From Bryobacteraceae bacterium (lineage in GTDB: Bacteria; Acidobacteriota; Terriglobia; Bryobacterales; Bryobacteraceae): a DNA stretch of 50,630 bases. Below the pieces are notes generated by a model. The model saw nothing but the letters and a program-made list of their open reading frames with translations. It did no database searches and was not told where the DNA came from. Positions 3,024 to 23,306 of the stretch are shown here, piece by piece; the first letter of the stretch is position 1; every line of letters begins with the position of its first letter. The stretch spans positions 1 through 50,630 of the forward strand of contig DATNLV010000228.1 of assembly GCA_035602665.1 (NCBI GenBank), written 5' to 3'. The position numbers and the translations under genes were made by a program.

Positions 3024-3046
3024 CCGCTTGGCTCCAGGTGTGAATC

Positions 3047-5020: not shown

Positions 5021-5870
5021 CGACACTGCCTGCTCCCCGATGAAGGCCGGCGAGTTCGCCAAGATCCGCCAGCTCGCCTATGACACCTTCGGGCTGGACC
5101 TGCGGGCGGGCAAAGAAACGCTGGTGTCCGCGCGGCTGGGCAAACATATCCGCAAGTCCGGATGCCGTTCCTTCGACGAGTACTACCGGCACGTCGTCGA
5201 GGACTCGACCGGGGAGGCGCTCATCCACCTCATTGACGCGCTCACCACCAACCACACCTCGTTCTTTCGCGAGTCGGCGCACTTCGATTTTCTGCGCAAG
5301 GTGCTTCTGCCGGAGTGGAAGAACCGCGCCGCCATCGAGATCTGGAGCGCCGCCTGCTCCTCCGGCGAAGAGCCTTACTCCATCGCCATGTGCATCCTCG
5401 AGGAACTGGGCGCGGTCCCTCCCGGCAAGGTTCATATTCTGGCCACCGACATTTCGACCCGCGTGCTGGCCGCGGCCGCCAAAGGAATCTATCCGGCCGA
5501 GCGCTTCGAGGCCTTCTCGCCCGTGCAGCTGCGCGGCCACTGGCTGCGCGGAGAGCGCGACTTCGCCGGCTCGTACCGCGCCAAGAAGGAGCTGCGGGCG
5601 ATGATCGAGTTCCGCCGGCTGAATCTGCTGGAGCCAGGCCCCCGGCTCGGCCCTTTCCCGCTTATCTTCTGCCGCAACGTGATGATCTACTTCGACAAGC
5701 CGACCCAGCGGCAGGTGGTCGAGCGCCTGGCCGGGTCCCTGGAGCCGGGCGGCTATCTGCTGACCGGGCACGCCGAAAGCCTCACCGGAATCGACCATGG
5801 GCTCCACTACGTGCAGCCCGCCGTGTACCGCAAAGGGTCCTCGCCGGAGAGGGAGAAGGGGAAACGGTGA
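5007..5870 (+). CDS. cheR: Chemotaxis protein methyltransferase CheR
   Basis: 287 aa. SAM-binding motif IWSAACSSGEEPYSIAM and FCRNVMIYFD. Overlaps the cheA stop by 14 nt. Confidence 0.95.
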   Translation: MQALDDTACSPMKAGEFAKIRQLAYDTFGLDLRAGKETLVSARLGKHIRKSGCRSFDEYYRHVVEDSTGEALIHLIDALTTNHTSFFRESAHFDFLRKVLLPEWKNRAAIEIWSAACSSGEEPYSIAMCILEELGAVPPGKVHILATDISTRVLAAAAKGIYPAERFEAFSPVQLRGHWLRGERDFAGSYRAKKELRAMIEFRRLNLLEPGPRLGPFPLIFCRNVMIYFDKPTQRQVVERLAGSLEPGGYLLTGHAESLTGIDHGLHYVQPAVYRKGSSPEREKGKR

Positions 5871-6379
5871 GCCAACTGACCGTCGGAGTCGGAGACTGCA
5901 AGACCAGCAATGCCCCCGAATCGGTCCTGGCGACCTACGCTCTGGGTTCCTGCATCGCGGTGGCGATTCACGATCCGGTGGCAGGCGTCGGCGGTCTGCT
6001 GCACTTCATGCTGCCGGAGTCCTCGCTCAACCCGGAGAAGGCCAGCCAGAATCCGTTCATGTTCGCCGACACCGGCGTTCCGCTCCTGTTTCGCACCGCC
6101 TACGGGCTGGGCGCCGAGAAACGCCGCCTGGTGGTGAGGGTGGTGGGCGGGGCGCAGGTCATGGACGAGCATGGCGTGTTCAACATCGGGAAGCGCAACC
6201 ACGTGGCGCTGCGCAAGATCCTCTGGAAGGCGGGGGTCATGGTCCACGCCGAAGAGGTCGGAGGGAACACCTCCCGCACCGTGCGGCTGGAGGTGGCGAC
6301 CGGCCGCTTCTGGATCCGCGGGCCCGGGATGGAGGATCGCGAAATGATGCCGTCGTCGACGGGAAAGGGAGGACGCTGA
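5867..6379 (+). CDS. cheD: Chemoreceptor glutamine deamidase CheD
   Basis: GTG start in a GTGA overlap with the cheR stop. ATYALGSCIAVAIHDP...GGLLHFMLP matches the CheD core. The ORF-track entry 5315-6379 is an upstream over-extension of the same frame. Confidence 0.9.
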   Translation: MSQLTVGVGDCKTSNAPESVLATYALGSCIAVAIHDPVAGVGGLLHFMLPESSLNPEKASQNPFMFADTGVPLLFRTAYGLGAEKRRLVVRVVGGAQVMDEHGVFNIGKRNHVALRKILWKAGVMVHAEEVGGNTSRTVRLEVATGRFWIRGPGMEDREMMPSSTGKGGR

Positions 6380-6771
6380 TGGAACTCCGTGTATTGATCG
6401 TGGACGATTCCTCGGTGATGCGCGCGTTCATACGCCGCGTCCTGGAGTTGTCCGGCCTGGAGATCGGGCTCTGCCTGGAGGCCTCGAACGGCGAAGAGGC
6501 GCTGCGGGTGCTCGAAAACAACTGGGTGGACGCGGTGCTCACCGATATCAACATGCCGACGATGGACGGCGAAGAGTTGCTGCGGCGGATGTCCGAACAC
6601 GCGGTGTTGCGGCTGATCCCGGTCCTGGTGGTATCGACGGACCGCACCGAAGGTCGCGTGCAGAAAATGCTCACGCTGGGGGCCAAGGGCTATGTCACCA
6701 AGCCCTTTGCACCGGAGACCTTGCGGGAAGAACTGGAACGCAGTCTGGCGGTGGTCAATGGAACCGAATGA
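6379..6771 (+). CDS. cheY: CheY-like single-domain response regulator
   Basis: ATG shares its A with the cheD TGA. MELRVLIVDDS...LTDINMPTMDG...VSTD...TKPF carries all receiver signature residues. 130 aa. Confidence 0.9.
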   Translation: MELRVLIVDDSSVMRAFIRRVLELSGLEIGLCLEASNGEEALRVLENNWVDAVLTDINMPTMDGEELLRRMSEHAVLRLIPVLVVSTDRTEGRVQKMLTLGAKGYVTKPFAPETLREELERSLAVVNGTE

Positions 6772-7291
6772 GATCCAGGTGGGGTTGGCGGCGGCGGTCG
6801 AGGAGGTCCTCGAAACGATGTGCTTTACCAGTGTGCTCGCGAGCGGCGAGGGAGCAGCCCCGGCCGGCATGGGCGCCGGGCACCGAACCGCGAGCGTGAG
6901 CGAGCGGACCTCGGCTGGGAGCGAAGAAACGGTCCCGGACGCCGCGGCGCGCTCGTGCACCGCGGAGCTGCACTTCGAAGGTAATCCTTCGGGCGGATGC
7001 CGCGTAAGCGTCCCGTTGAAGCTGGCACGAGTGGTAGGCGCCGGCTTTCTCGGCAGCGAGGAGATGGAAGTGTCCGACTCCCAGGCCGAGGAGGTGGTCT
7101 GCGAACTGGCCAACATGATCTGCGGCTCGGTGCTGAGCCGGCTCGAAAGCGAGGAGACGTTCCGCATCACTCACCCCCAACTGGTCCCGCCGGAGCGGGG
7201 CGCCGGCTTCGAAAACGCGGCCATCAACCGCTGGTTCGACTTGGGAGATGGAATCCTCACCGTAACGCTGGAGCTTCAGCCGGCCATATGA
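6758..7291 (+). CDS. cheX: CheX/CheC-family CheY-P phosphatase-like protein
   Basis: Starts at MEPNEIQ, overlapping the cheY end by 14 nt. Contains EEVVCELANMICGSV...THP, resembling the [DS]xxxExxN-x22-P phosphatase motif. Position between cheY and cheB fits. Confidence 0.7.
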   Translation: MEPNEIQVGLAAAVEEVLETMCFTSVLASGEGAAPAGMGAGHRTASVSERTSAGSEETVPDAAARSCTAELHFEGNPSGGCRVSVPLKLARVVGAGFLGSEEMEVSDSQAEEVVCELANMICGSVLSRLESEETFRITHPQLVPPERGAGFENAAINRWFDLGDGILTVTLELQPAI

Positions 7292-8346
7292 AGACCCGGG
7301 TCCTGATCGTCGATGATTCCGCCATCGTCCGCAAGTTGCTGGCCGAGGCCTTGTCCGAAGAGAAGGACATCGAGGTCGTGGGAACCGCGCCCGACCCCTT
7401 CGTGGCCCGCGACAAAATCCTCGCGCTCAGGCCGGACGTCCTGACGCTCGACATCGAGATGCCCCGCATGGACGGCCTCACGTTCCTGAAAAAGCTAATG
7501 CACTACCAGCCGATTCCGGTGGTCGTAATCAGCTCGCTCGGGCAGGCCGGATGCCAGGCGACTCTGGAGGCTTTGCGTCTTGGCGCCGTGGAGGTGCTGG
7601 CCAAGCCCGGTGGCCCCTACTCGGTAGGCGAGTTGCGGCTGGACCTGGCGGCTAAGATCCGGGCCGCCGCCGCCGCGCGTCTCCGCCGTGCGCCAACCGC
7701 GCCAACCGCGCACCCCGCGCCGGCCGCTAAACCGGAACCGTCCCTTCCCCCGGCCGCGTTCGATCCCGATGCGATCATCGCGGTCGGCGCCTCTACCGGA
7801 GGAACCGAAGCAATTCAGGACGTGCTCACCCACATGCCCGCCGGCTGTCCCGCCATGGTAATCACCCAACACATACCGCCCGTCTTCTCGCTGGCCTTCG
7901 CTAACCGGCTGAACGAGATCTGCCCAATGGAGGTCAAGGAAGCCCGGGACGGCGATGCGGTGGTCCGCGGCCGGGCCCTGATCGCACCCGGAAACTTCCA
8001 CATGTTGCTCCGCAAATCACCCGGCGGAGGCTTCCGGGTCACCGTCCAGGATGGCCCCCGCGTCTGCTACCAGCGGCCGTCCGTGGACGTCATGTTCTGC
8101 TCCGTGGCCGACGCCGCCGGTCCCCGGGCCATCGGCGTCCTGCTGACCGGAATGGGGAGCGACGGCGCCCGCGGGATGCTGAAGATGAAACAGAGCGGCG
8201 CCAGGACCATCGCGCAGGACGAGGCCAGCTGCGTGGTCTACGGAATGCCGCGGGAAGCCGTGCGCCTTGACGCGGCCGAGCAGGTCGTCCCCCTCGGCAA
8301 AATCCCCGCCGCCATCCTCGGCCAACTCAGCCGCATCGCGCGATAA
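7288..8346 (+). CDS. cheB: Chemotaxis response regulator protein-glutamate methylesterase CheB
   Basis: ATGA overlap with cheX. REC domain (MKTRVLIVDDS...LTLDIEMPRMDG) plus esterase domain (GASTGGTEA, LLTGMGSDGA, QDEASCVVYGMP). 352 aa. Confidence 0.95.
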   Translation: MKTRVLIVDDSAIVRKLLAEALSEEKDIEVVGTAPDPFVARDKILALRPDVLTLDIEMPRMDGLTFLKKLMHYQPIPVVVISSLGQAGCQATLEALRLGAVEVLAKPGGPYSVGELRLDLAAKIRAAAAARLRRAPTAPTAHPAPAAKPEPSLPPAAFDPDAIIAVGASTGGTEAIQDVLTHMPAGCPAMVITQHIPPVFSLAFANRLNEICPMEVKEARDGDAVVRGRALIAPGNFHMLLRKSPGGGFRVTVQDGPRVCYQRPSVDVMFCSVADAAGPRAIGVLLTGMGSDGARGMLKMKQSGARTIAQDEASCVVYGMPREAVRLDAAEQVVPLGKIPAAILGQLSRIAR

Positions 8347-8355
8347 GGGGCCAGA

Positions 8356-8398
8356 GTGGGGCGGCTCTCCAGAGCTGCGCCGGACGTCCACGTCCGGC
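8356..8398. repeat. Hairpin repeat (family B), likely also the che-operon terminator region
   Basis: GCTCT-CC-AGAGC (8364-8375) and GCCGGACGT-CC-ACGTCCGGC (8379-8398), enclosed by GGGGCC (8347-8352) / GGCCCC (8395-8400). The same 43-nt unit recurs at 21641-21682 with about 3 mismatches. Confidence 0.6.
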
Positions 8399-8496
8399 CC
8401 CTCCGTGTTCAAAATCCAGACAGTCCATGTATTGAAACACTCCACGGAGCCAGCCCCACCTCGCGTCATCCGTTCTAAACACACATCTTCCCGGTA

Positions 8497-8512
8497 AGGA
8501 ACCGGAATTGCT
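8497..8512 (+). promoter_or_regulatory. Sigma-54 type -24/-12 promoter candidate
   Basis: aGGaaCcggaaTTGCt against consensus TGGCACG-N4-TTGCW. The GG (8498-8499) and GC (8510-8511) have the canonical spacing. It lies 22 nt upstream of the 8534 ATG. A sigma-54 activator is encoded at 15924-17282. Confidence 0.45.
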
Positions 8513-8533
8513 CCTCCGAAACCAGAGAAGCCA

Positions 8534-8686
8534 ATGAATACCGACACCTACTGGCTGAACATGACCAATATCCTCCTCGGCATGGTCACGGCCATCTCCT
8601 TCCTCCTGATCCTGAAGGCCGTTGTTGCCGAGCTCGCCGCGCACCGCCACCACCGGCCGCTGAACCAGGAAGAGATCGAGCTGTAG
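8534..8686 (+). CDS. Small single-TM protein (50 aa), first gene of the redox module
   Basis: Below the ORF-track size cutoff; read by eye as MNTDTYWLNMTNILLGMVTAISFLLILKAVVAELAAHRHHRPLNQEEIEL. It resembles the N-terminal anchor of the 14168-14992 product (TM followed by RHH). It sits just after the sigma-54 motif and 8 nt before the next gene. Confidence 0.45.
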   Translation: MNTDTYWLNMTNILLGMVTAISFLLILKAVVAELAAHRHHRPLNQEEIEL

Positions 8687-8694
8687 CCCCTGCT

Positions 8695-9519
8695 ATGCGG
8701 TGCCCCTACCTTCAGGAAACGCAGATCAGGTTCTGCCGTATCGCGGCCGGGCCCAAAATGATCGCCCGCGCCGGCGCCGGCGGGTTCGAGGAAAAGTGCT
8801 CCTCGCCCTCCTACGCTACCTGCGCGGTCTACCGCCAGCGCCCCGGCGATGCGACCGATCCTATCTGCCCACACCTGGAGACTTCGCCCGCGCAATACTG
8901 CTCGGCCGCGCCCGAAAGGCGGCCCATCCCCCGCAAGCCGCTGCCAACCGCCTGCGAGGGAGGCTGCTACCGATATTGTTTCCTCTACCGCGACCTGCTG
9001 GGAACGGCCGACGAGGCGCCAACCATCGACGGCGTCCGCGTACCGCCCGACCTCCTCTATGCCGCCAACCACCTCTGGCTCCATCGCGCCGAGGACGGCT
9101 GGTGCCACGCCGGCATCGACGGCTTTCTGGCGAAGCTGCTGGGCCGGGTCGAAGCGGTCAGCGTGATCGCGTCCAAAGGCACGCTGGCGCCGAGCGCGGT
9201 CCTTCGGGCGCACGCCCTGAACTGGCGGGTCGCGTTTCCGAATCCGCTCCGCGACGCGGTCGGGAACCCGCAACTGCGCGCTCATCCCGAATGCCTTACG
9301 GCCGACCCGTATGGAGGCGGCTGGCTGTTCGCCGGCCAGGCCGACGCGGGCTCGACCGTCGCGGCCGGGCTCCTCGCAGGAGAGGAGGCGCTTGCATGGA
9401 TGACCCGCGAAATCGAGCGAATCGCGAGCCGGCTGGGCGGCCGGCCGTTCCAGGAAGGCCTGCTGGGCCGCCTGGACCGAGAAGCGTCTTTCAGCCTGTT
9501 TCAGGATTTCTGCCAATGA
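8695..9519 (+). CDS. Cys-rich protein with C-terminal glycine-cleavage-H (GcvH)-like fold, no lipoyl lysine
   Basis: 274 aa. Nine Cys in the first 94 residues, including a duplicated C-P-[YH]-L-x6-[FY]-C motif (C3..C14, C58..C69) and CEGGCYRYC. The C-terminal half aligns to GcvH (NHLWLHRAEDGWCHAGIDGF...DPYGGGWLF). No signal peptide. Confidence 0.8.
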   Translation: MRCPYLQETQIRFCRIAAGPKMIARAGAGGFEEKCSSPSYATCAVYRQRPGDATDPICPHLETSPAQYCSAAPERRPIPRKPLPTACEGGCYRYCFLYRDLLGTADEAPTIDGVRVPPDLLYAANHLWLHRAEDGWCHAGIDGFLAKLLGRVEAVSVIASKGTLAPSAVLRAHALNWRVAFPNPLRDAVGNPQLRAHPECLTADPYGGGWLFAGQADAGSTVAAGLLAGEEALAWMTREIERIASRLGGRPFQEGLLGRLDREASFSLFQDFCQ

Positions 9520-10103
9520 AGAACTATCGAGGGTCGATTCTTTTCGTTGCCGGCTTCGCCATCGCGCTGTCGGCCGGCTGGCTCGCCTTTCCCCGGGCGG
9601 AGTATGAAAGGCAGAACCAGCCGATTCAGTTCAGCCACAAAGTCCATCGCGACAAGGGCGGAATGAAGTGCGAAGACTGCCACGCCATCCGCGATGACGG
9701 GACCTTCAGCGGCATTCCCGCCGTCGACAAGTGCGCCGGCTGCCACGCCGCCCCGATGGGCACCACGGACGAAGAGAAACGGATGATCAAGCGCTACATC
9801 GAGCCGAACCGCGAGATTCCGTGGCTGGTCTACGCGCGCCAGCCGGAGAACGTGCGGTTCTCGCACGCCTTCCACGTGAAGCTGGCCAAGCTCGCCTGCG
9901 AGCGCTGCCACCAGGCGCACGGCGATTCCAACTCGCTCCCGGCCTTCGAGCGCGACCGCGTCAGCGGCTACAGCCGCGACATCCTCGGCGACCCGTCGCT
10001 TGCGAACGCGGCAAATCGCCACCCGGGCATGCAGATGGACGACTGCATTCGATGCCACCAGCAGCGCGGGGTCCAGGACAGTTGCCTGGCTTGCCACAAA
10101 TAG
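9516..10103 (+). CDS. Membrane-anchored pentahaem c-type cytochrome (class III / ActA-QrcA-like)
   Basis: ATGA overlap with the previous gene. N-terminal TM ILFVAGFAIALSAGWLAF. Five CxxCH motifs (CEDCH, CAGCH, CERCH, CIRCH, CLACH) and FSHxxH distal-His motifs. 195 aa. ORF-track entry 8700-10103 is an Arg-rich over-extension. Confidence 0.9.
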   Translation: MKNYRGSILFVAGFAIALSAGWLAFPRAEYERQNQPIQFSHKVHRDKGGMKCEDCHAIRDDGTFSGIPAVDKCAGCHAAPMGTTDEEKRMIKRYIEPNREIPWLVYARQPENVRFSHAFHVKLAKLACERCHQAHGDSNSLPAFERDRVSGYSRDILGDPSLANAANRHPGMQMDDCIRCHQQRGVQDSCLACHK

Positions 10104-10112
10104 GAGACACAC

Positions 10113-12173
10113 ATGGGACTCGGGCGGCGCGACTTATTGAAACTGGTGGGCGGCGGGGCGGCGGGCTTCTTCCTGACTCCGGTTCCGTGGAGGCTCATCG
10201 ATGGCGTGGCCATCCGGACCGAAAGCTGGCCCGGCGTTCCGGATCCGCCGCGCGGCGAGGTTCGCACCAGGTACACCACCTGCACCCTCTGCCCGGCCGC
10301 CTGCGGCGTGCGCGCCCGCTGCGTCGTGGATCAGCCGGTCAGCCTGGCCGGAGTGGCCTCGCATCCTGCCAGCGCGGGCGTCCTTTGCCCGGCCGGCCTG
10401 TGCGGCCATCATCTGCCGCTGCTCCCGAACCGCCTGCGCCAGGCGCTCGCGCGCAAGGGCGATAACTTCCAACCTGTGGGCATCGACGCGGTCGCGGGAG
10501 CGGTGGCCACGGCGCTCGCGGACATGCGCCAGAACGGATCGGCCGAGCGCGTCGCAGTCCTCGACGCCCGTCCCGGCCGCACGGCTTCGTTGATGTACCG
10601 CCGCTGGCTGCGAGCCGCGCCGAACGGCACGTACCTCCTGGCGCCCTCGGCCGAAGCCACCGCGCCCATGGGAATCGACATCGCCCGCACCGGCACCGTG
10701 CTCAGCTTCGGAGCGCCTGTGCTGGACGGCTGGGGCACCCCAGGTCGCGTCCTCGAAGCACGCAAGACTTTCCGCCTCATTCAAGTCGAAACGCGGCAAT
10801 CGAGGACCGCCCTGCTCGCCGATGGATGGCTGCCGATCCGTCCCGGCACCGAGGCCGCGCTCGCGCTAGGCATCGCCAACGTTCTGATCGAAGAGAAGCT
10901 GTACGACGCCGCCGCGGCGCGCAACGCCTCCGATTTCGCCGCCTATGCGGCGCTGGCCGCGCAGTTCCCTCCGCAGCGCGCCGCACAGCTCACGGGCATT
11001 CCCGCCCAGACCATCATTGCCGCGGCGCACGATTTCGTCGGCCACGGTCCCGCCATCGCAATCGCCGCGAGCGATCCCGGCGGCGGGCCGCTGGGCGAGG
11101 ATGAGCAGATCGCCATCGCGGCTCTGAACGTACTCTCCGGCAGCATCGGCCGCGAGGGCGGATTCCTGCCGCGCGGAGAAGCGTCGCGCCCGGCCGGGTT
11201 CGAAGAAGCCGCCCTGGCGCCGGAGCAAGGGATCGCCGAAGTGCCCGACGCCTCCATCCGCGTCCTGATCATTGACGACGCGCGCGCCGCCGGTACGTGG
11301 TGCTGGAGCGCGATCGAGCGGAAGCTCGCCGCCACCCACATCGTCGTCGCCATGACCGAATTCCTGGAAGGCGCCGCGCAGCACGCCGATTTCGCCGTGC
11401 CCGCGCCGGCCTATCTCGAAGCGGGCGAAGACGCGCCCGCCCCTCCCGACGTTCCAGCGGCCATGTTCAGCCTGGCCGGAGCCCTTCTGAAACCCCCGCC
11501 CGAAGCCGTCGACGGCGCCGCCTTCCTGAACCAGGTGGCGGGTGGCGGACCCGCGCTGGCCGACGTGCTGAAACAGCGCGTGGCCGCGATTCACGCCTCG
11601 CGCCGTGGCGAAGTCTTCCATTACGCGGATGCCTCGCGCACCGCGGTCCGGGACGTCAAATCGGCTGCCGACCTGTGGAAGGCCCTCGAAGAAGGCGGCT
11701 GCTGGATAGACCACCAGCCGACCCCGCACGAAAAGCCGCTCTTCGCAATTCTCGGCGATGCCCCCGACCGCGTCCTCGAAGCGGCCTCGGGCCGCCTGCC
11801 CGCGGACGCCCAGTTCCCCCTCGCCCTGGTTCCCTACGGATGGCGCGGCGCCGCCGGCGGGGCGATCTCTCCGATCATGACCAAGCTGTACCAGGAATCC
11901 GACCTGCGCCCCGGCGGTGACACCATCGAGCTTCACCCCGACACGGCGCGGAAGTACGGCGTCGCCGACGGCCACGTCGCAATCGTCCAGACCCGCTGCG
12001 GCAGTTGCCAGCGCCGTGTGCGAGTCGATGAGTCCGTGATGCCGGGCGTCATCCAAGCCGAGGTCGGCCCGTCCGCGAGTGGCAATTGCCGGCCGGAGGC
12101 GTTGCTGAACGCGTGCGGCGTCGCCGGCGACGGCACATGGCGTTTGGCGCGCGCCAGTCTGAGGAGGGCATAA
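10113..12173 (+). CDS. Tat-exported molybdopterin-oxidoreductase-family (MopB) subunit, Psr/Qrc/ActB-like
   Basis: 686 aa. AGGAGA RBS. Twin-arginine motif GRRDLLK. N-terminal CxxCxxxC...C cluster motif (CTLCPAAC...LCPAG). MopB blocks WLPIRPGTEAALALG and TIELHPDTARKYGVADGHVAIV. Whether Mo-bisPGD is actually bound cannot be judged by eye. Confidence 0.9.
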   Translation: MGLGRRDLLKLVGGGAAGFFLTPVPWRLIDGVAIRTESWPGVPDPPRGEVRTRYTTCTLCPAACGVRARCVVDQPVSLAGVASHPASAGVLCPAGLCGHHLPLLPNRLRQALARKGDNFQPVGIDAVAGAVATALADMRQNGSAERVAVLDARPGRTASLMYRRWLRAAPNGTYLLAPSAEATAPMGIDIARTGTVLSFGAPVLDGWGTPGRVLEARKTFRLIQVETRQSRTALLADGWLPIRPGTEAALALGIANVLIEEKLYDAAAARNASDFAAYAALAAQFPPQRAAQLTGIPAQTIIAAAHDFVGHGPAIAIAASDPGGGPLGEDEQIAIAALNVLSGSIGREGGFLPRGEASRPAGFEEAALAPEQGIAEVPDASIRVLIIDDARAAGTWCWSAIERKLAATHIVVAMTEFLEGAAQHADFAVPAPAYLEAGEDAPAPPDVPAAMFSLAGALLKPPPEAVDGAAFLNQVAGGGPALADVLKQRVAAIHASRRGEVFHYADASRTAVRDVKSAADLWKALEEGGCWIDHQPTPHEKPLFAILGDAPDRVLEAASGRLPADAQFPLALVPYGWRGAAGGAISPIMTKLYQESDLRPGGDTIELHPDTARKYGVADGHVAIVQTRCGSCQRRVRVDESVMPGVIQAEVGPSASGNCRPEALLNACGVAGDGTWRLARASLRRA

Positions 12174-12176
12174 GCG

Positions 12177-12935
12177 ATGGCTGCGAACAAATCGGCGCGA
12201 TACGGAATGGTCATCGACCTCGACCGCTGCACCGGCTGCGGCGCCTGCATGGTGGCCTGCGCCATCGAGAACAACGTGCCGCCGGCCAACGCCAAGGCCA
12301 CCGAGCGCACCGGCATCACCTGGATGCGCGTCCACCGCCTGGGCAACGGCCGCCCGTTCCCCGACAGCCGGGCCGTGTTCTTCCCCATCCTCTGCCAGCA
12401 GTGCGGCCACCACACGCCGTGCGTCGCCGTCTGCCCGCAGAACGCGGTCGAAGTGGACGCCGCGACCGGCATCGTGGACCAGATGCCGCAGCGCTGCCTC
12501 GGCTGCCGCTATTGCATGGCCGCGTGCCCCTACCATGCCCGATATTTCAACTGGTGGGATCCGGCCTGGCCTGCCGGAATGGAAAAGACGTTGAACCCGG
12601 ACGTGGCGCCGCGCATGCGAGGCGTCGTCGAAAAGTGCAACCTGTGCCACGGCCGCCTGCATCGCGCCGAGTCGAAAGCGGCCGCCGAAGGACGGCGGGA
12701 CATCGCCGCCAACGATTACGTTCCTGCTTGCGTCGAGGCCTGCCCCGCCAAGGCGATCACCTTCGGCGACCTTGCCGACGACCAGACCGAAGTGGCGCAG
12801 CTGGCCCGCAGCGAGGGCGCCTTCCGCCTGCTCGAAAAGCTGGGCACCGAATCGAAAGTCTATTACCGGTCCGAGCGGCCCTGGGTGCACCAGGCGGTCA
12901 AGTCCGGAATCGGAAAGGAGCCGCAACGTGGATAG
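12177..12935 (+). CDS. 4x[4Fe-4S] ferredoxin-type electron-transfer subunit (PsrB/NrfC/QrcC-like)
   Basis: 252 aa. Cys clusters CTGCGACMVAC, CQQCGHHTPCVAVCP, CLGCRYCMAACP and CNLCHGR...CVEACP. No signal peptide of its own, consistent with Tat hitch-hiking on the MopB subunit. Confidence 0.95.
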   Translation: MAANKSARYGMVIDLDRCTGCGACMVACAIENNVPPANAKATERTGITWMRVHRLGNGRPFPDSRAVFFPILCQQCGHHTPCVAVCPQNAVEVDAATGIVDQMPQRCLGCRYCMAACPYHARYFNWWDPAWPAGMEKTLNPDVAPRMRGVVEKCNLCHGRLHRAESKAAAEGRRDIAANDYVPACVEACPAKAITFGDLADDQTEVAQLARSEGAFRLLEKLGTESKVYYRSERPWVHQAVKSGIGKEPQRG

Positions 12936-14160
12936 GAGTTACATCGCGCGCGGATTGGAGCGCTGCACGACGCGCCGCTTCCTGATGTGGTTATTGCCCT
13001 GGACCCTACTGCTCGCCTTCGGCCTCTACGCCGCCGGCCTCTGCCTGTTCAAGGGACTCAACCAGACGAACATGGACAACCGGTTCGCCTTCGGCCTCTG
13101 GATCTTTCTCGACCTCACCGTGATCGCGCTAGGCGCGGGCGCGTTCTTTACCGGCTTCCTGGTCTACATCCTCCGTATGCATGAGCTGAAGGCCGTGATC
13201 AACAGCGCCGTGGTGATCGGCCTGGTCTGCTACAGCGGAGCGGTGACGGTGCTGATGGTGGACGTAGGCCAGCCTCTGCGCGCCTGGTTCACCTTCTGGC
13301 ACCCCAATGTCCACTCCATGCTGACCGAGGTCACGTTCTGTATCACCTGCTACCTCACGGTGCTGGCCATCGAATACCTGCCGCTGCTCCTGAAGAACCG
13401 CCGCCTGCGCCAGGTGCCGTCGTTCCTGGTATTCGAGTTCGAGCTGCATCGCGTGATGTACGTGCTGGCGGGCGTCGGCACGTTCCTCTCGTTCTTTCAT
13501 CAGGGCTCGCTCGGCGGCCTCTACGGCGTGCTGCGCGGCCGGCCGTTCGCCTTCCGCGAGGCGCTGGGCGTGTGGCCTTCCACATTCTTCCTCTTCGTGC
13601 TCTCCGCCGCTGCCGTTGGACCGAGCTTCGTGCTGCTGACCACCTGGCTGGTCGAAAAGATCACCGGCCACCAGCTCGTCGAGCGCACAGTCATGCAAAA
13701 GCTCGGCCGCCTGTCGGGAGTCCTTCTGATCGTCTACGTGCTGCTCAAGACCATCGACACGCTGGTCTGGATGAACCGCACCGTGCCCGGCGAAGGCTTT
13801 TCGCCGCAGCAGTTCTACGGCTTCGAGCCCTTCGGGGTCTGGATTCTTTTCGCGGAGATCGTGGTGTTCGGCCTCCTGCCGGCGGTCGTCCTGCTCGACG
13901 CGCGCAGGCGTGCGTCGCAGGCCTGGCTGCTCACCGCGGCCGGCTTCGCCTGCTTCGGGGTTGCGCTGAACCGCTTCGTCATGACCATCCAGACGCTCGC
14001 GCTCCCGACGCTGCCCTTCGACCGCTTCCTCTCCTACTGGCCAAGCTGGCAGGAAGTCGGGACATTTCTGGCCGTGGTCGCATACGGTGTTCTGGTCTAT
14101 TCGTTGTCCTACCGCTACCTGATCCTGTTTCCGCAGGAGCGGGACCTGAAGGCGAGGTGA
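12928..14160 (+). CDS. NrfD/PsrC/QrcD-family integral membrane quinone-interacting subunit
   Basis: GTG start after GGAAAGGAG, overlapping the FeS gene by 8 nt. About 410 aa and highly hydrophobic, with roughly 8-10 TM helices. The ORF-track start at 12772 lies inside the previous gene. Confidence 0.9.
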   Translation: MDRSYIARGLERCTTRRFLMWLLPWTLLLAFGLYAAGLCLFKGLNQTNMDNRFAFGLWIFLDLTVIALGAGAFFTGFLVYILRMHELKAVINSAVVIGLVCYSGAVTVLMVDVGQPLRAWFTFWHPNVHSMLTEVTFCITCYLTVLAIEYLPLLLKNRRLRQVPSFLVFEFELHRVMYVLAGVGTFLSFFHQGSLGGLYGVLRGRPFAFREALGVWPSTFFLFVLSAAAVGPSFVLLTTWLVEKITGHQLVERTVMQKLGRLSGVLLIVYVLLKTIDTLVWMNRTVPGEGFSPQQFYGFEPFGVWILFAEIVVFGLLPAVVLLDARRRASQAWLLTAAGFACFGVALNRFVMTIQTLALPTLPFDRFLSYWPSWQEVGTFLAVVAYGVLVYSLSYRYLILFPQERDLKAR

Positions 14161-14167
14161 GATCGAA

Positions 14168-14992
14168 ATGTTTCCATGGGTGAACGGCTTCAAATGGGAC
14201 GCGGGCCACGTCATCTTTCTAGGCGCTTTCTACACGGTCGTGATGATCGTGCTGGCGACCGTTGTCCGCGCCCTGGTGCGGTCCAGGCACCATGTCCGCG
14301 TCGAGAAGGTTGAAGCATTCCGGTGGAAGCAGGACTTCCACGATCTGCCGGCGCGGGACCGCCGCTGCCGCCACGAGCTGAACGGAGAAGTGGACTCGCG
14401 CCTCTGCGAGAACGGGTTCGATTGCCGCTCCTGCGCCAAGCACCCGGAGTTCGTGCAGGCTGCCGCGGCGCGGGCCGATCTGCCGAAGGGCGAATTGTTC
14501 GGGTTCCCCATGCCGCTCGACCGCCTGTACCACCGCGGCCACACCTGGGTTCGAAAGGAGAAGGACGGAACGTTGTCGGTAGGCCTCGACGAACTGGGAG
14601 CACGTCTGATCGGCAAGCCGGAACGCCTCGATCTTCCCGAACTCGGCCAGCACCTCAATGCCAACGCCACCGCATGGAGCGCCGCGCGCAACGGTGCGAC
14701 GATCCGCGTGTTGGCCCCGATCGAAGGCACCGTACTCGCCACCGGAGGCCCCGACCAGGGCTGGTATCTGAAACTCCGTCCCGACGGGCCGCAGCCCGAC
14801 ACCCGCCACCTGCTCCGCGACGGAGAAGCCGTCCGCTGGATGTCGCGCGAGCTGGACCGTCTGCAACTTCTAGCCACCCACGGCGCCTGCCCCGCCCTGG
14901 CCGACGGCGGAGCCCTGGTCGAAGACCTCGGCGCCGCCCTACCGAAAAACGAATGGGCCGCCGTCTGCGGCGAAATGCTGTTGGAACCGTAG
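14168..14992 (+). CDS. Membrane-anchored Cys-motif protein with GcvH-like fold, lipoyl lysine replaced by Asn
   Basis: 274 aa. GAGGTGAG RBS. N-terminal TM VIFLGAFYTVVMIVLATVV followed by RALVRSRHH (positive-inside, so the domain is predicted cytoplasmic). C-x12-C-x5-C-x2-C motif. GcvH-like YHRGHTWVRKEKDGTLSVGLDELGARLIG...WSAARNGATIRVLAPIEGTV...GWYLKLR. Confidence 0.8.
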   Translation: MFPWVNGFKWDAGHVIFLGAFYTVVMIVLATVVRALVRSRHHVRVEKVEAFRWKQDFHDLPARDRRCRHELNGEVDSRLCENGFDCRSCAKHPEFVQAAAARADLPKGELFGFPMPLDRLYHRGHTWVRKEKDGTLSVGLDELGARLIGKPERLDLPELGQHLNANATAWSAARNGATIRVLAPIEGTVLATGGPDQGWYLKLRPDGPQPDTRHLLRDGEAVRWMSRELDRLQLLATHGACPALADGGALVEDLGAALPKNEWAAVCGEMLLEP

Positions 14993-15044
14993 GGGAAGGG
15001 GGAAAACCGCCGTAGCGCAGGTTGGGGCCTCAGAGCTAATCCGT

Positions 15045-15836
15045 TCAGCGAGGGCGGGACGCTTTCTCACGCTCCACCTGGCGAACAATAGCCGACGCGA
15101 GTCCTCTGAGCCCTTCGGGGAGGCGCGCCGACAAGACTATCAGATCGGGCGGCTTTCCACTCAGGATCGCTACACCCTCGATGGGACTACCGTTTTTCTC
15201 AAGTGACGAATGTGTTCCCAACCCTTCTGTCTGGGCCGGAGTTCTATATTCAACCACCGCTCTGCCTCTGTAAGTCAGCTTGTCCGATGGATAGGGGCCG
15301 AACGGATACTCGCTTGCAGGAAAATCGGATCCGTCCATCAATTCGTGCACGCGGGACTTGTAGGCTGGGAACACTCGCGCAATGATTCGGACGACCTCAA
15401 GGCTGTCCCCGAGTTGGTCGCTGTGTCTTTCGGAAATCTCAATTGCCGGCCCATTAAAGCCGCGATCCTCTGGCCCGAAAATGTTGTTCCATCCGACCGG
15501 TTGGGGGCTCACATAGAGAAAATCGCCGCCGGAACCATAGACTCCCAGACAATACCAACCCCTTGGGGCAAGCACGCCAAGATCGAGGGCGGACCCGTAA
15601 TAAGCGAGCGCCTTGGCCGCGGTAGGGCTAAGCGGCAGCGATTTGACTGTACCCTTGGGCGCCTCCAGCAGCTCCGCCTGGCCGACAGATCGACATCCAA
15701 TGAAAGGTACCGAAACTGTCGACGCCGCAGACCCTGGAGAACTCGACGCCTCAACTTGTGTCTCCGCGCAAAGCGAAAGGTGCATGGACAGAACCCCGAC
15801 GGCACAACGCAGGCTCCGCGGTGAACGGCATCTCAC
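15045..15836 (-). CDS. Hypothetical lipoprotein (low-GC gene downstream of the sigma-54 activator)
   Basis: I prefer the GTG at 15836, which gives (M)RCRSPRSLRCAVGVLSMHLSLC, a lipoprotein-like signal with an LSLC lipobox. The ORF-track start at 15905 is further upstream. The sequence looks like real protein (GWYCLGVYGSGGDFLYVSPQP). About 52 % GC in the one 60-nt stretch I counted (15181-15240). No family recognised. Confidence 0.6.
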   Translation of the reverse strand: MRCRSPRSLRCAVGVLSMHLSLCAETQVEASSSPGSAASTVSVPFIGCRSVGQAELLEAPKGTVKSLPLSPTAAKALAYYGSALDLGVLAPRGWYCLGVYGSGGDFLYVSPQPVGWNNIFGPEDRGFNGPAIEISERHSDQLGDSLEVVRIIARVFPAYKSRVHELMDGSDFPASEYPFGPYPSDKLTYRGRAVVEYRTPAQTEGLGTHSSLEKNGSPIEGVAILSGKPPDLIVLSARLPEGLRGLASAIVRQVEREKASRPR

Positions 15837-15923
15837 GAGTGACAGTCTACTACCGCGCGAACCTCGCTGTTCACGGGCGTCCCAAGAGGAGACCGACTGC
15901 GGCACAGGGCCGCCCCCGCCTCC

Positions 15924-17282
15924 TCACCGCTCGATCGCGTACTTCTTGATCTTCTCGTACAGCGTCGAGCGCTCGATTCCCAACGTCGCCGCCGTCTCCT
16001 TGATATTGCCGTCGTGCCGCCGCAGCGTCGCCTCGATCGCTTGTTTCTCGATCTCCTGCAGGCTGAGGTTCGTCGGCACGCTCCACGCTTTGCGGCCATC
16101 GACGGCGTGGCCGAGAAACGCGAAATCCTCCTCCGTCAGCACCCGCCCGTGGCAGGTGACAACGGCGCGCTCGATCGCATTCTCGAGCTCGCGCACATTG
16201 CCCGGCCACTCGTGATCGAGCAGCACCTTCAGCGCTCCGTCCGAAAGCTCGGCCAGGTCCTTGCGTAGCTCGTGCGCGATCCGCTCCACGAAGTGGTTGG
16301 CCAGCAGCGGAATGTCCTCGCGGCGTTCGCGCAGCGGCGGAATGCGCGCTTCGATCACGTTGAGCCGGTAGAACAGGTCGTCGCGGAAGCGGCCATCCGC
16401 CACCGCCTGCTCCAGGTTGACGTGGGTCGCGGCGATCACCCGCACGTCCACCTGCACCTCCTCGGCCCCGCCCAGCCGGTAGAACGAGCGCTCCTGCAAC
16501 ACGCGCAGCAGGTCCACCTGCAGCTTGGGCGAAATGTCGCCGATCTCGTCCAGGAAAATCGTGCCTCCGTCGGCTAGCTCGAACTTGCCCTTCTTGCGGT
16601 CGGCCGCGCCGGTGAAGGCGCCCTTCTCGTAACCGAACAACTCGGATTCCAGCAGCGTTTCCGCCAGCGCCGCGCAGGAGACGCCGATAAACGGTTTGCC
16701 CGCGCGCGAGCCGGAATAGTGGATCGCCCGCGCGATGAGTTCCTTCCCGGTCCCGCTTTCCCCGCGAATCAACACGGTGTTCTTCAGGCTGGCGACATCC
16801 TCGGCCAGCTGCATCAGGTCGTGCATCCGCGCGTTTTTGCTGAGGATGTCCTGGAAGCGGTACTGCCGCGTCAGCTTCTTGCGCAGGATCGCGTTCTCCC
16901 GCTGCAGGTTCTTGAGCTTGATGATGCGGCCCACCAGCAGAGAAATCTCCGCCGGGTTGCACGGCTTGACGATGTATTCCTGCGCGCCCTCCTTCATCGC
17001 GGCCACCGCGGTATCGACCGTGGCGTAGGCGGTGATGATCACCACGGATGCCTCGGGCTGGAACCTGCGGATCTCGATCATGGTTTCGATCCCGTCCAGG
17101 CCGCCCGGCATTCTCAGGTCGATGAAGTAGATCGCGTAGGGGCGCGAGCGCGCCTTGTCGATGGCCTCGCCGCCCGACGCCGCGGTATCGACGGCGTAGC
17201 CGTCCTCCCGCAGCCAGGCAGCCAGCGACTCCGCCATCAGCTCCTCGTCATCCACTACCAGGATTTCCCAATTCGCCTTCAT
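15924..17282 (-). CDS. Sigma-54-dependent response regulator (REC-AAA+-Fis HTH, NtrC family)
   Basis: 452 aa. REC (ILVVDDE...[12 protein letters not shown]), Walker A GESGTGKE, sigma-54 contact loop GAFTGA, C-terminal HTH ([18 protein letters not shown]). ATGA overlap with the kinase gene. Confidence 0.95.
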
Positions 17283-18922
17283 TTGGTCTGACTCGCTACC
17301 GGGCTACCTTTGCCCTCCACATCCGCCGGCGTGGCCTGCGCAGCCAGGGGCAGCGTGACCGAGAAACAGGTGCCCTCCCCCGGCTTGCTCGTTACTTCGA
17401 TGTCGCCGCCATGCTCCTGCACGATCCCGTAAGTCACCGCCAGTCCCAGCCCCACTCCCTTGCCCTCGGGCTTGGTGGTGAAAAACGGGTCGAAGATCTT
17501 CGCCAGATTCTCCGGAGCGATGCCGTCGCCATTGTCCTCCACCGCGAGCACCACCACGCCCGCATCCGGGCGAGCCCGTGTACGAATGGCGATCCGCCCC
17601 TCGCTGCGACGCTGCACTGCCGCCGCCGCGTTCAGCAGCAGATTGATGATGACCTGCTGCATCTGCGCGCTGTCGCACTCGACCGCCGGCAAATCGGCCT
17701 CCAAATCGAGAACGGTTTCGGCGCCGGCGAGCTTGAGCTTGTGCGCCACCAGGGACAGCGTCGTCCGCACCACCTTGTTCAGGTCCGCCTTGCTCCGTTG
17801 CGGCTTCGAGCGCCGCGCGAAAGACAGCAGGTCAGAAACGATCCGCCCCACGCGCCCGGTCTCGCCCACCACGATGGAGAGGTAGCGCCGAAACTCCTCC
17901 AGCCGGCCCGCCGGAACGCCATCGTCCTTCACCATGCGCTGCATGAGCATGGAGAGATTCAGCACCGTGGACACCGGGTTGTTCACTTCGTGAGCCACGC
18001 TGGCGGCAAGCTGGCCGAGCGAGGCCATGCGATCGCTCTGCAGCAATCTCTGGTGAGCGGCCTTGAGCTGTTCGGTGCGGCGCTCCACTTTTCCTTCCAG
18101 GCCCTGGTTCACTTGATTGATCTCCGCCAGGGCATCGCGCAGCCGCTCGCGCATTCGGTTGAACGAGTGCGCCAGCTGGTTCAGTTCCTCGCTGCTCTCG
18201 ATCGGCTCGACGGGCTTATCGAGCTCCATCGCGCTCACGGCGTGTGTGCCGTCGATCAGCTTGCCGATCGGAACCGTGACGAAGTGATGCGTGAAGAACA
18301 CGACAAACAGGCTGAGCAGCAGTATCTGGATGCCGGTGACCAGGTACACGCGCGTCTGCATGGCGCGCACTTCGCGGTCCACCGGGCTGAGGTCCAGGGC
18401 AAGGTCCAGCACCCCGAGCACGCGCACATCGGCGGGATGGGCGTGGCACGCGGACTCGCTGCATGCCTTTTCGTTGTAGATCGGCGTCACCATCACCAGG
18501 CTGCGGTGCCCGTTGCTGGCCGCGAACACGCGTACCCGCGAGCGCGACTCGATCTTCACCTTGGGTGGGACTCCGGTGTGGCAGCGGGCGCAAGGGTCTT
18601 CGGACTTGTCCAGGTCGTGCCCCGGAACCGGGTCGGTCGAGAACATCAGCCGGCCGGTCCGGTTGAAGATGCGTATGCGGTCGATGCCCTGCGTGCGGGC
18701 GATGGCCTGCATCACCTGAAAGGCGGTCTCGCGGTGGTCGCGCAGCATCGCGTGCCAGGTGGCGCTGGTGATGCCGTGAGAAAGCTGGTCCGCCCCGACG
18801 ATCATGGCGTTCAGGAGCTGGCGTTCCTGGGTCTTGATATTCACCACGCCCCAAACGGCGGCGAGGACGATCACGATCACCGTGAGCGACAAGACGAGTT
18901 TCTGAGACAGCCTCTTTGGCAC
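17279..18922 (-). CDS. Sensor histidine kinase with periplasmic Cys/His-motif domain, HAMP, HisKA, HATPase_c
   Basis: 547 aa, GTG start. TM1 at residues 9-27 and TM2 around 193-212. The periplasmic segment carries CARCH (CxxCH) and CSESACH (Cx4CH). H-box [10 protein letters not shown]; G-boxes DNGDGI and GKGVGLGL. Confidence 0.95.
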
Positions 18923-19023
18923 TTCTGACCCGAGTTCTGATTATCCTCCAAGGGCCGAGGCAGATCTACGGGTCTGAATCTACCGATAGCGCCGCGGAGA
19001 GACAATAGCCCTGGAAGGTGACG

Positions 19024-19335
19024 ATGCGAGTGATTGCGGACCTATGCTTGATTCCGATCGGTATTGGCGTATCGGTCTCCAAGGAAATCGCCGCGTGCGA
19101 GCGCGTGCTGGCCGAGGCGGGCCTGAAGACCAGGCTGCACGCCTACGGCACCAACATCGAAGGCGAATGGGACGACGTCTTCGCCGCCATCAAGCGCTGC
19201 CACGAAGTGGTGCACGCCATGGGCGCGCCGCGCATCTCGTCGAGCCTTCGATTTGGAACCAGAACCGATCGCCCCCAGACCATGGACGACAAGGTTCACA
19301 GCGTCGAGGACAAGCTGGCGGGGGGCGGGCTTTAG
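19024..19335 (+). CDS. MTH1187/YkoF (DUF77, UPF0045) family protein
   Basis: MRVIADLCLIPIGIGVSVSKEIAACERVL...YGTNIEGEWDDVFAAIKRCHE matches the DUF77 pattern. ATG at 19024 is preferred over the GTG at 19018. The stop codon lies inside the first hairpin of the downstream repeat. Confidence 0.85.
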   Translation: MRVIADLCLIPIGIGVSVSKEIAACERVLAEAGLKTRLHAYGTNIEGEWDDVFAAIKRCHEVVHAMGAPRISSSLRFGTRTDRPQTMDDKVHSVEDKLAGGGL

Positions 19336-19401
19336 CCCGCGCGGAACTTTAGTTCCGCCGTCCGCGGTGCGGGGCTAAGCCCCGCGCGGGCTCAAGCCCG
19401 C
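19325..19401. repeat. Array of four tandem GC-rich palindromic hairpins (family A) between convergent genes
   Basis: GCGGGCT-TT-AGCCCGC (19325-19340), GCGGAACT-TT-AGTTCCGC (19341-19358), GGGGC-TAA-GCCCC (19371-19383), GCGGGCT-CA-AGCCCGC (19386-19401). Probably acts as a bidirectional terminator. Confidence 0.7.
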
Positions 19402-19412
19402 CCCCCTCAGCC

Positions 19413-21599: not shown

Positions 21600-21640
21600 T
21601 GGCACTGAGTATAGCGGACCGATAAACGACTTCGCGACTG

Positions 21641-21728
21641 GTGGGGCGGCTCTCTAGAGCTGCGCCGGACTTCCACGTCCGGTCAGGCGGGTCTGGAGAC
21701 CCGCTGCAGGACTGGAGTCCTGCCCCAC
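21641..21728. repeat. Composite hairpin repeat (family B unit followed by family C unit)
   Basis: GCTCT-CT-AGAGC (21649-21660), CCGGAC-TTCCAC-GTCCGG (21665-21682), GCGGGTCT-GG-AGACCCGC (21687-21704), GCAGGACT-GG-AGTCCTGC (21706-21723), then CCCAC. Confidence 0.7.
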
Positions 21729-21731
21729 ACC

Positions 21732-23294: not shown

Positions 23295-23306
23295 TGGTTC
23301 ACGACT

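Follow-up and report, generated by a model that had tools for sequence, protein, structure and literature searches.

We report here on a seven-gene operon of a Bryobacteraceae bacterium (Acidobacteriota), located at positions 8534-14992 on the + strand of a 50,630-nt stretch of contig DATNLV010000228.1 (assembly GCA_035602665.1); the whole stretch is called the window below. Judged by their sequences, the four core genes are true relatives of qrcABCD, the genes of the quinone reductase complex (Qrc), and they are enclosed by three accessory genes: p50, which encodes a small membrane protein, and the genes we label gcvA and gcvB, which encode proteins with the fold of the glycine cleavage H-protein (GcvH). 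On the whole, the core is an ordinary Qrc, and it is the extended composition, the retained iron-sulfur site FS0 of QrcB and the regulation that are undescribed and widespread. This sister form of Qrc is spread through Acidobacteriota, Bacteroidota and Ignavibacteriota, always with the three extra genes. The reading that we favour, and to which we give an even chance, is that the complex performs Qrc chemistry and that the three accessory proteins face the cytoplasm as its stable structural or regulatory subunits.

Layout of the operon

A preliminary description of the window had proposed seven closely packed genes on one strand. All seven open reading frames (ORFs) are indeed found at the coordinates it gave, and the junctions along the operon measure +8, -4 (ATGA), +9, +3, -8 and +7 nt. 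The genes are the following, with lengths in amino acids (aa), TM for transmembrane and Tat for twin-arginine translocation:

8534-8686, + strand: p50, first in the operon, small membrane protein with one TM pass, predicted N-out/C-in
8695-9519, + strand: gcvA-like, 274 aa, soluble and predicted cytoplasmic, with two 4-Cys sites, GcvH fold and C-terminal helical extension
9516-10103, + strand: QrcA, membrane-anchored pentahaem cytochrome c, periplasmic, 195 aa, NCBIfam QrcA, five CxxCH
10113-12173, + strand: QrcB, Tat-exported putative scaffold of the molybdopterin family, 686 aa, best NCBIfam match QrcB, FS0 cysteines
12177-12935, + strand: QrcC, four-cluster Fe-S subunit, periplasmic, 252 aa, best NCBIfam match QrcC
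12928-14160, + strand: QrcD, NrfD-type integral membrane quinone-binding subunit, 410 aa, GTG start, NCBIfam QrcD
14168-14992, + strand: gcvB-like, single-pass N-out/C-in membrane protein, 274 aa, with Cys/His site, GcvH fold, helix and LADGG motif

The motifs described earlier for the core were each recovered as well. QrcA is anchored by an N-terminal TM helix and contains the CxxCH motif exactly five times, and QrcB carries the twin-arginine motif RRDLLK followed by C57-x2-C60-x3-C64...C92. The 16 Cys of QrcC fall into four groups of the ferredoxin type, and since the protein lacks a signal peptide, its export would take place together with QrcB. QrcD, which matches the Pfam family NrfD, begins with a GTG in an 8-nt overlap with qrcC. 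The seven-gene arrangement is not a product of chance, since it is present in all 80 species-level genomes that were retrieved via QrcD alone.

Kinship of the core with Qrc

The comparison of the core with QrcABCD in order and sizes, which had been made in the preliminary description, proves to be sound. The order qrcA-B-C-D on one strand is that of Nitratidesulfovibrio vulgaris, and both QrcD and QrcA pass the cut-offs of their NCBIfam models (581.7 bits against 570 and 212.9 bits against 180, respectively). Identities to QrcA, QrcB, QrcC and QrcD of N. vulgaris Hildenborough (locus L083) are 37, 27, 52 and 49%. The residues of QrcC and QrcD needed for menaquinone reduction and cytoplasmic proton uptake were established in N. 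vulgaris by mutagenesis in 2026, namely Y113 in QrcC and D70, Y110, D120, S138, Y150, R358 and E413 in QrcD (PMC13059093). None of the eight is changed in the window, nor in any of eight further sequences of the clade, which were taken from three phyla (Acidobacteriota, Ignavibacteriota and Bacteroidota). This conservation indicates that the QrcCD quinone module is very probably the same in function as the canonical one. Moreover, a comparison of 82 variant with 118 canonical QrcD sequences gives 16 fixed differences, none of which is His or Met; a haem-b site in QrcD, which would show up as a clade-specific His or Met, was thus rejected.

Canonical Qrc of Desulfobacterota (N. vulgaris DVU0692-0695) and the window share the four core subunits in the same order, that is the TM-anchored multihaem QrcA, the MopB-like QrcB with its Tat signal, the four-cluster QrcC and the ten-helix, cofactor-less QrcD. 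The differences are also clear. Canonical Qrc is made of four genes while the window operon has seven, with p50, gcvA and gcvB added; the window operon comes with a sigma-54 promoter and an adjacent haem-sensor two-component system; and the variant occurs in Acidobacteriota, Bacteroidota and Ignavibacteriota. The activity that marks Qrc, as assayed with purified complex in menaquinone proteoliposomes (PMC6303296, PMC13059093), is that of an electrogenic cytochrome c3:menaquinone oxidoreductase with H+/e- = 1. The preliminary description had also remarked on the lack of an obvious substrate-defining partner. This holds, but it is normal for Qrc, which has a soluble cytochrome of the periplasm as its partner. 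The haem motifs of QrcA number five in the window and six in N. vulgaris, and QrcA/ActA is already called 'penta/hexaheme' in the literature (PMC6303296). As for QrcB, its C57/C60/C64/C92 align with the FS0 cysteines of Thermus thermophilus PsrA. The CxxCxxxC...C motif with these four cysteines is fully conserved across the QrcB of the variant clade, whereas three of the four are lost in the QrcB of N. vulgaris and in a second canonical-type sequence. The canonical QrcB is described as cofactor-free (PMC13059093).

Kinship with other NrfD-containing systems is more remote. Alternative complex III (ACIII) resembles the core in its pentahaem cytochrome, cofactor-poor MopB-like module, four-cluster Fe-S module and NrfD-type subunit, and it also has small single-pass accessory subunits. 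However, the MopB-like and Fe-S modules are fused in ActB of ACIII and encoded by separate genes in the window, and ACIII has two NrfD subunits (ActC and ActF) and the monohaem ActE, against a single NrfD gene in the window. As stated earlier, none of the window products resembles ActD, ActE or ActF, and no monohaem ActE-like ORF was found in the whole window. To our knowledge, the published ACIII structures contain no GcvH-fold subunits. QrcD and ActC fall in separate clades (PMC6303296). Of the families named in the preliminary description, it is Qrc to which the core is homologous, rather than ACIII, Psr or Nrf. DsrMKJOP and HmcABCDEF are similar to the operon in having a periplasmic cytochrome c, an NrfC-type Fe-S protein, an NrfD-type subunit and a Cys-rich cytoplasmic protein. 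These complexes, however, span the membrane with a dihaem cytochrome b (DsrM/HmcE) and terminate at a CCG-domain protein of the HdrD kind (DsrK/HmcF), and searches with Pfam and NCBIfam reveal neither a dihaem cytochrome b nor an HdrD/CCG domain in the seven products. DsrO and DsrP appear only as distant NCBIfam matches of the core.

Co-conservation of the accessory genes

The QrcD alignment, a query independent of the flanking genes, was searched against one genome per GTDB species. This gives 583 genomes with QrcD relatives, of which the best 80 were kept (68-95% identity). Neighbouring genes in these 80 loci were detected by six-frame phmmer, and p50 by jackhmmer. The 80 genomes include Bryobacterales/Solibacteraceae, other Terriglobia, Thermoanaerobaculia, Vicinamibacteria, Ignavibacteriota and Bacteroidota, and the nearest QrcD relative, at 95% identity, belongs to a metagenome-assembled genome (MAG) of Bryobacterales. 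In all 79 loci where the sequence reaches far enough, gcvB comes straight after qrcD. The gcvA gene lies upstream of qrcA in 65 of 66 loci by phmmer, and the 66th, with a masked stretch, also contains it, so that a lack of co-conservation, named in the preliminary description as a possible refutation, is clearly not seen (79/79 for gcvB, 66/66 for gcvA). In 64 of 65 loci a p50-like ORF immediately precedes gcvA, and the 65th (L028) has one slightly outside the distance window.

The canonical comparison consists of two Desulfobacterota qrc loci and one intermediate locus. Neither p50 nor gcvA nor gcvB is found at the qrc locus of N. vulgaris, and accessory genes are likewise missing at the second canonical-type locus (QrcD with 618 bits on the Qrc model) and at a 40%-identical QrcBCD-like locus, including downstream of its QrcD-like gene. 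Taken together, the strict co-conservation and the absence from these three loci indicate, on gene content, that the accessory genes define a distinct Qrc sub-family. The same arrangement is also present in a sulfate-reducing acidobacterial MAG, CO124, where gene 48, annotated 'Glycine cleavage H-protein' and with one TM helix, adjoins qrcD (PMC10564751).

Three database proteins (P0179, P0185 and P0188) look like gcvA-QrcA fusions but are frameshifted or masked gene calls. Among them, P0185 (373 aa, with GcvH and cytochrome domains) and P0179 are taken as frameshifts because the linker reads like an out-of-frame QrcA TM helix. An in-frame gcvA-qrcA ORF in L076 (3305-4609) was discarded as an artefact of a masked run of N.

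The accessory proteins

Both 274-aa flanking proteins match Pfam GCV_H, with 25.4 and 31.1 bits against a gathering threshold of 22.2, and with 25.0 and 31.2 bits both stay far below the 115.85 that the gcvH equivalog TIGR00527 requires. AF2 models built from 35-39 homologues reach a mean pLDDT (predicted local distance difference test) of 83 for gcvA and 81 for gcvB. In Foldseek searches against PDB the top matches of both models are GcvH only, with E 4e-8 to 7e-8 and target TM-score 0.74-0.80, and these matches span only the C-terminal halves. A match of the flanking ORFs to GCV_H, which had been set beforehand as a test, is therefore obtained in profile and structure searches alike. At the column of the lipoyl Lys of Escherichia coli GcvH, which belongs to the hairpin E-S-V-K-A, all 12 gcvB-type sequences have Gly and all 14 gcvA-type sequences have Ala, Gly or Ser; in gcvB, the Lys/Arg two residues before this position is not invariant. 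Pfam, Foldseek and the alignment thus agree with the earlier view of a GcvH fold without the lipoyl Lys. Since this Lys is replaced in all homologues examined, gcvA and gcvB are not lipoate carriers of a known kind, and calling them carrier-like, as was done before, is doubtful now that the attachment site of the prosthetic group is seen to be gone. The same barrel-sandwich hybrid fold occurs in GcvH, in LbpA of sHdr sulfur oxidation and in GcvH-L of Firmicutes. Unlike gcvA and gcvB with their Gly, Ala or Ser, the known functional ones among these relatives carry lipoate on a conserved Lys. Besides, gcvA and gcvB are twice as long as GcvH, with Cys-rich N-domains, a TM helix (in gcvB) and C-terminal helical extensions added.

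Eight Cys of the gcvA N-domain are invariant; they are arranged as two C-x10-C-x17-20-C-x7-C repeats and form the 4-Cys sites C3/C14/C35/C43 and C58/C69/C87/C95. In gcvB the invariant residues past the TM helix are C67-R-H69, C80, F84-D85-C86-R87, C89 and H92, and because this 4-Cys site directly follows the helix it should lie near the membrane surface. The 4-Cys sites are predicted to bind metal, all three invariant sites being on the presumed cytoplasmic side. Even with E relaxed to 5, no Pfam family matches the Cys domains of gcvA or gcvB, their profiles retrieve nothing meaningful among PDB sequences, and hhalign finds no homology between the two Cys domains. A Rieske site in gcvB, suggested by a C-x-H...C-x2-H pattern, was rejected, the region being predicted as helix/coil and the His being absent from the paralogue in L072 described below. 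Nevertheless, gcvA and gcvB share one architecture, namely a Cys domain, the GcvH fold, a helix with W..RE.ERL, a DGG-type motif and terminal helices, and for this reason they appear to be paralogous. Homologues of gcvB are numerous, with more than 1000 protein clusters.

A TM helix is found in gcvB only, and gcvA is soluble and without signal peptide. The preliminary description had placed both GcvH domains in the cytoplasm by the positive-inside rule. The cytoplasmic prediction stands, but the rule covers only gcvB and p50, whose TM helices have flanks predicting N-out/C-in, while gcvA is assigned to the cytoplasm by default because it is soluble and has no signal peptide. All accessory domains are thus predicted to be cytoplasmic, opposite the head exported by Tat and by the general secretory (Sec) pathway. 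The p50 protein matches no Pfam or NCBIfam family, but p50 is a real gene, and the N-terminal 40 residues of its product are conserved. In the window it is truncated to 50 aa, and most of its relatives have about 87 aa and end in a conserved TMADGGE motif (...DGHAFHVPGLGLTMADGGE). The pair of p50 and gcvA resembles a split version of gcvB. No conserved haem ligands are present in the TM helices of p50 and gcvB.

The long form of p50, gcvA and gcvB have in their cytoplasmic tails a common short motif, hydrophobic-[M/L]-A-D-G-G (window 8534-8686, 9430-9519 and 14880-14992), which may be a docking peptide. In gcvB the ADGG stretch (residues 240-249) is the AF2 region of lowest confidence. In the clade of the window the ADGG copies of p50 and gcvA are both lost and the gcvB copy is kept. 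This joint loss was considered as evidence of co-variation and set aside as too weak, being a single lineage event with counter-examples.

A distantly related protein is seen apart from Qrc in L072, an Acidobacteriota MAG (16316-21220, - strand), where a HybB/HmcC-type NrfD gene is followed by the gene of a soluble 275-aa protein of the Cys4-GcvH-DGG type. This protein has a C-x12-C-x5-C-x2-C motif, a GcvH domain (Pfam, 57.5 bits) and a MYDGG motif, and manual alignment again places Gly at the lipoyl position. The NrfD cluster of L072 has its own haem-motif kinase and sigma-54 regulator. The case hints that Cys4-GcvH-DGG proteins are partners of NrfD modules more generally; no relatives of the L072 paralogue were found in the metagenome scan.

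Proposed working of the complex

In the working that we propose, c-type cytochromes of the periplasm would exchange electrons with the menaquinone pool of the membrane. The five QrcA haems and the four QrcC Fe-S clusters would lead to a quinone site that QrcD has on its periplasmic side, and the protons for quinone reduction would be drawn from the cytoplasm via QrcD. QrcB would be a Tat-exported, probably Mo-free scaffold that holds one [4Fe-4S] cluster (FS0). On the cytoplasmic face, p50 as a small anchor, gcvA and gcvB would be docked to QrcD, with gcvB tethered by its own helix and gcvA possibly via p50. NrfD subunits are built of two pseudo-two-fold-related four-helix bundles, each with a putative ion path (PMC8076601), and since gcvA and gcvB appear to be paralogous, one gcv module might cap each of the two bundles. 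The role of the accessory proteins would then be structural or regulatory, for example in assembly or in the control of cytoplasmic proton entry, and not in transmembrane electron transfer; both their docking site and their function we infer. If the extra proteins are subunits, they would give an NrfD module of the Qrc type its first known partners in the cytoplasm. They would also offer a handle on the way in which NrfD subunits without cofactors link the chemistry of quinone to the cytoplasm, be it by proton entry, regulation or assembly.

Several points weigh against this proposal. QrcC and QrcB fall below the cut-offs of their NCBIfam models (359.5 bits against 400 and 241.6 bits against 440, respectively), although these are still the best families for both. 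Because of these low scores and the FS0 site kept in QrcB, the core may not behave exactly like the Desulfovibrio Qrc. The binding of the accessory proteins to the Qrc complex is inferred, and no genuine fusion of an accessory gene with a Qrc subunit was found. If the metal at the 4-Cys sites is Fe-S rather than Zn, a purely structural role becomes less attractive, and in organisms without sulfate reduction the electrons may flow in either direction. In addition, the only transcriptome we found, that of CO124, shows the qrc genes at no more than 1.7 reads per kilobase per million (RPKM) under anoxia, with zero reads for gene 48, that is gcvB (PMC10564751).

The best surviving alternative, possible but less probable than the subunit reading, is that the accessory proteins are dedicated maturation factors, which insert or proofread the Fe-S clusters of QrcB (FS0) and QrcC before Tat export and are held near the translocon by their membrane anchors. 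NarJ, TorD, DmsD and HybE have such maturation roles for other complex iron-sulfur molybdoenzymes, and genes of this kind are commonly embedded in nar, tor and hyb operons. The Cys-rich domains could hold transferable clusters, and QrcC, having no signal peptide, must assemble with QrcB in the cytoplasm. Furthermore, the accessory genes and the FS0 cysteines both occur in the variant clade and neither occurs in N. vulgaris or the P0192 contig; this correlation, from which L086 was left out as its MopB gene is cut by the contig end, is however based on very few independent lineages. Nor do the proteins resemble any known Tat chaperone or Fe-S scaffold family, and a set of three, two of them membrane-anchored and two paralogous, exceeds known chaperone systems. 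The translational coupling at both ends of the operon also suggests stoichiometric production, which suits subunits better than maturation factors.

Two further ideas give the cytoplasmic side a more active part, and we regard them as unlikely. The accessory proteins might form a cytoplasmic Fe-S electron arm on the NrfD subunit, with two sites in gcvA and one in gcvB, or the paralogous modules might gate the two proton half-channels of NrfD. Either of these, if true, would be a widespread way of coupling, not described before, among the Acidobacteriota and Bacteroidota of soils and sediments, and related modules would be expected on other NrfD complexes such as the HybB-type cluster of L072. 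The Fe-S arm in particular would make a two-sided quinone-coupled device, with a periplasmic cytochrome head, a quinone site and the arm itself built on lipoate-free GcvH scaffolds.

Less likely still is the full transmembrane redox device, in which the periplasmic head exchanges electrons with Fe-S clusters of gcvB and gcvA, maybe via a second quinone site on the cytoplasmic side, and the quinone pool is connected with a thiol or Fe-S chemistry of the cytoplasm, in the manner of DsrMKJOP or HdrDE. Such a loop had been suggested in the preliminary description. The three invariant cytoplasmic 4-Cys sites, with that of gcvB near the membrane surface, are in its favour, as are the redox nature of the system, its control by a redox sensor, and the unusual retention of FS0, which suggests a modified electron path. 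But there is no dihaem cytochrome b and no HdrD/CCG domain, the accessory proteins contain no Fer4-type motif, their GcvH domains are without the carrier Lys, and no redox cofactor can be placed inside the membrane, over a thickness of roughly 30-40 Å. QrcD shows no clade-specific haem ligand (His or Met) and keeps the canonical periplasmic quinone site and the proton-path residues. With the conduit missing and this canonical site and path kept, the transmembrane path is not supported.

The last alternative concerns QrcB. Its weak Pfam matches (Molybdopterin 28.6 bits, Molydop_binding 43.8 bits), its Tat signal and intact FS0 motif, and PhsA as its second-best NCBIfam match could suggest an active molybdoenzyme, the complex then being a quinol-dependent periplasmic reductase of the Psr/Phs/Ttr/Arr kind and not a Qrc-type cytochrome c:quinone oxidoreductase. 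We consider this very improbable: the best family of QrcB is QrcB itself, it is accompanied by a pentahaem QrcA and a QrcD with all Qrc-specific residues, and there is no alignment with PsrA or FdhH in the region where the Mo ligand would be expected, about 100 residues past FS0. Part of this region is deleted in the window, and no Cys, Ser or selenocysteine is conserved there in the variant clade, where QrcB length varies from 583 to 750 aa and some orthologues lose every Pfam MopB match. For these reasons (an unalignable and partly deleted ligand region without conserved Cys/Ser, and variable length) we take QrcB as a probable non-catalytic scaffold that retains one Fe-S cluster. The molybdenum-bis(pyranopterin guanine dinucleotide) cofactor is likely missing, no ligand for it being conserved.

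Promoter and regulators

The features that appear to control the operon are the following:

8497-8511, + strand: sigma-54 type -24/-12 promoter-like element AGGAAC-N5-TTGC, 23 nt 5' of the p50 ATG
15924-17282, - strand: NtrC-type sigma-54-dependent response regulator (AtoC/ZraR/NtrC-type models)
17279-18922, - strand: sensor histidine kinase with two c-haem motifs in its periplasmic domain (CARCH at 110, CSESACH at 153)

Taken alone, the GG-N9-TGC match in the window is at chance level. A -24/-12 element is, however, present within 150 nt of the p50 start in 30 of 35 related loci, against a background of 0.28 per 150 nt, and in most of these 30 it is about 37-47 nt upstream of the p50 start and mostly reads TGGC-N8-TGCA. 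No sigma-70-like promoter is found in 8300-15300. The regulator and kinase genes adjoin the operon in the window and lie within 10 kb of it in about half of the related loci; an NtrC-type regulator orthologue with more than 600 bits is within this distance in 39 of 80 loci, and L001 has one as well. Among full-length kinase orthologues beside the operon, CX4CH is kept in 34/34 and CXXCH in 23/34. The periplasmic domain of the kinase gives a weak match to Pfam Mcp40H-20_sensor, and apart from the Fe-S-type CNLCH of QrcC, the kinase is the only place in the window outside QrcA where CxxCH motifs occur. The kinase is thus probably a haem-c sensor of redox state or of a ligand, and the adjacent NtrC-type regulator is the probable activator of the operon. 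In the scheme that these features suggest, the operon with p50 as its first gene would be expressed from the sigma-54 promoter, and the regulator and the kinase, which would sense periplasmic redox state through its c-type haem, would switch it on.

Clustering of ORFs in the 80 loci shows that the only recurrent flanking genes beyond the operon are the kinase, the sigma-54 regulator and a Peptidase_M54 gene. The last, archaemetzincin-like and of about 180 aa, is located between kinase and regulator in L001 (1690-2229) and 37 related loci. It is absent from the window, where the kinase and regulator genes overlap directly.

Physiology and earlier reports

No dsr, hydrogenase or formate dehydrogenase genes are found in the window, and none of these, nor cytochrome c3 genes, recur in the flanks of the 80 loci. 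FCB-group (Fibrobacteres-Chlorobi-Bacteroidetes) genomes encoding QrcABCD are reported to be largely without Dsr, and Blakebacterota genomes encoding it to be mostly without DsrABC (PMC9727166). The complex is therefore not tied to sulfate reduction, because no metabolic partner recurs and the QrcABCD-encoding Blakebacterota mostly lack DsrABC. It also prompts one to ask which role Qrc has outside the sulfate reducers.

Qrc has been described as a four-subunit complex of sulfate-reducing Desulfobacterota (PMC13059093), and in a survey of 2021 QrcD was confined to Deltaproteobacteria (PMC8076601). Beside putative qrcABCD in Blakebacterota and Orphanbacterota, Gong et al. noted a 'novel protein family' that they left without a name (PMC9727166). 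Full-text literature searches returned no paper in which proteins resembling GcvH are linked to Qrc or to complexes with NrfD, and there is no curated NCBIfam/Pfam family for the accessory proteins beyond the generic GCV_H. The preliminary description had allowed that the arrangement might already be a named complex, but no paper or curated family names the seven-gene set. In metagenome annotations gcvA and gcvB are labelled 'glycine cleavage system H protein' or 'H lipoate-binding protein'. As the lipoyl Lys is absent from every homologue examined, the glycine-cleavage label is misleading, and it leads metabolic reconstructions astray.

Surroundings of the operon

The downstream genes of the window are unrelated to the Qrc operon. 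Between gcvB and the regulator lies a 286-aa ORF (15045-15905, - strand) that has no Pfam match and is perhaps not a genuine gene. The genes for a GH36 alpha-galactosidase (melibiase) and, adjacent to it, for two B12-binding radical SAM proteins (19413-25046, - strand) also appear to have no relation to the operon. Directly upstream, 1371-8346 is occupied by a complete chemotaxis cluster, consisting of genes for a methyl-accepting chemotaxis protein (MCP), CheA-CheW, CheR, a CheD-like protein, a CheY-like protein and CheB. In addition, a CheB-CheR-PAS-histidine kinase fusion protein of 1181 aa is encoded at 27002-30547 on the - strand.

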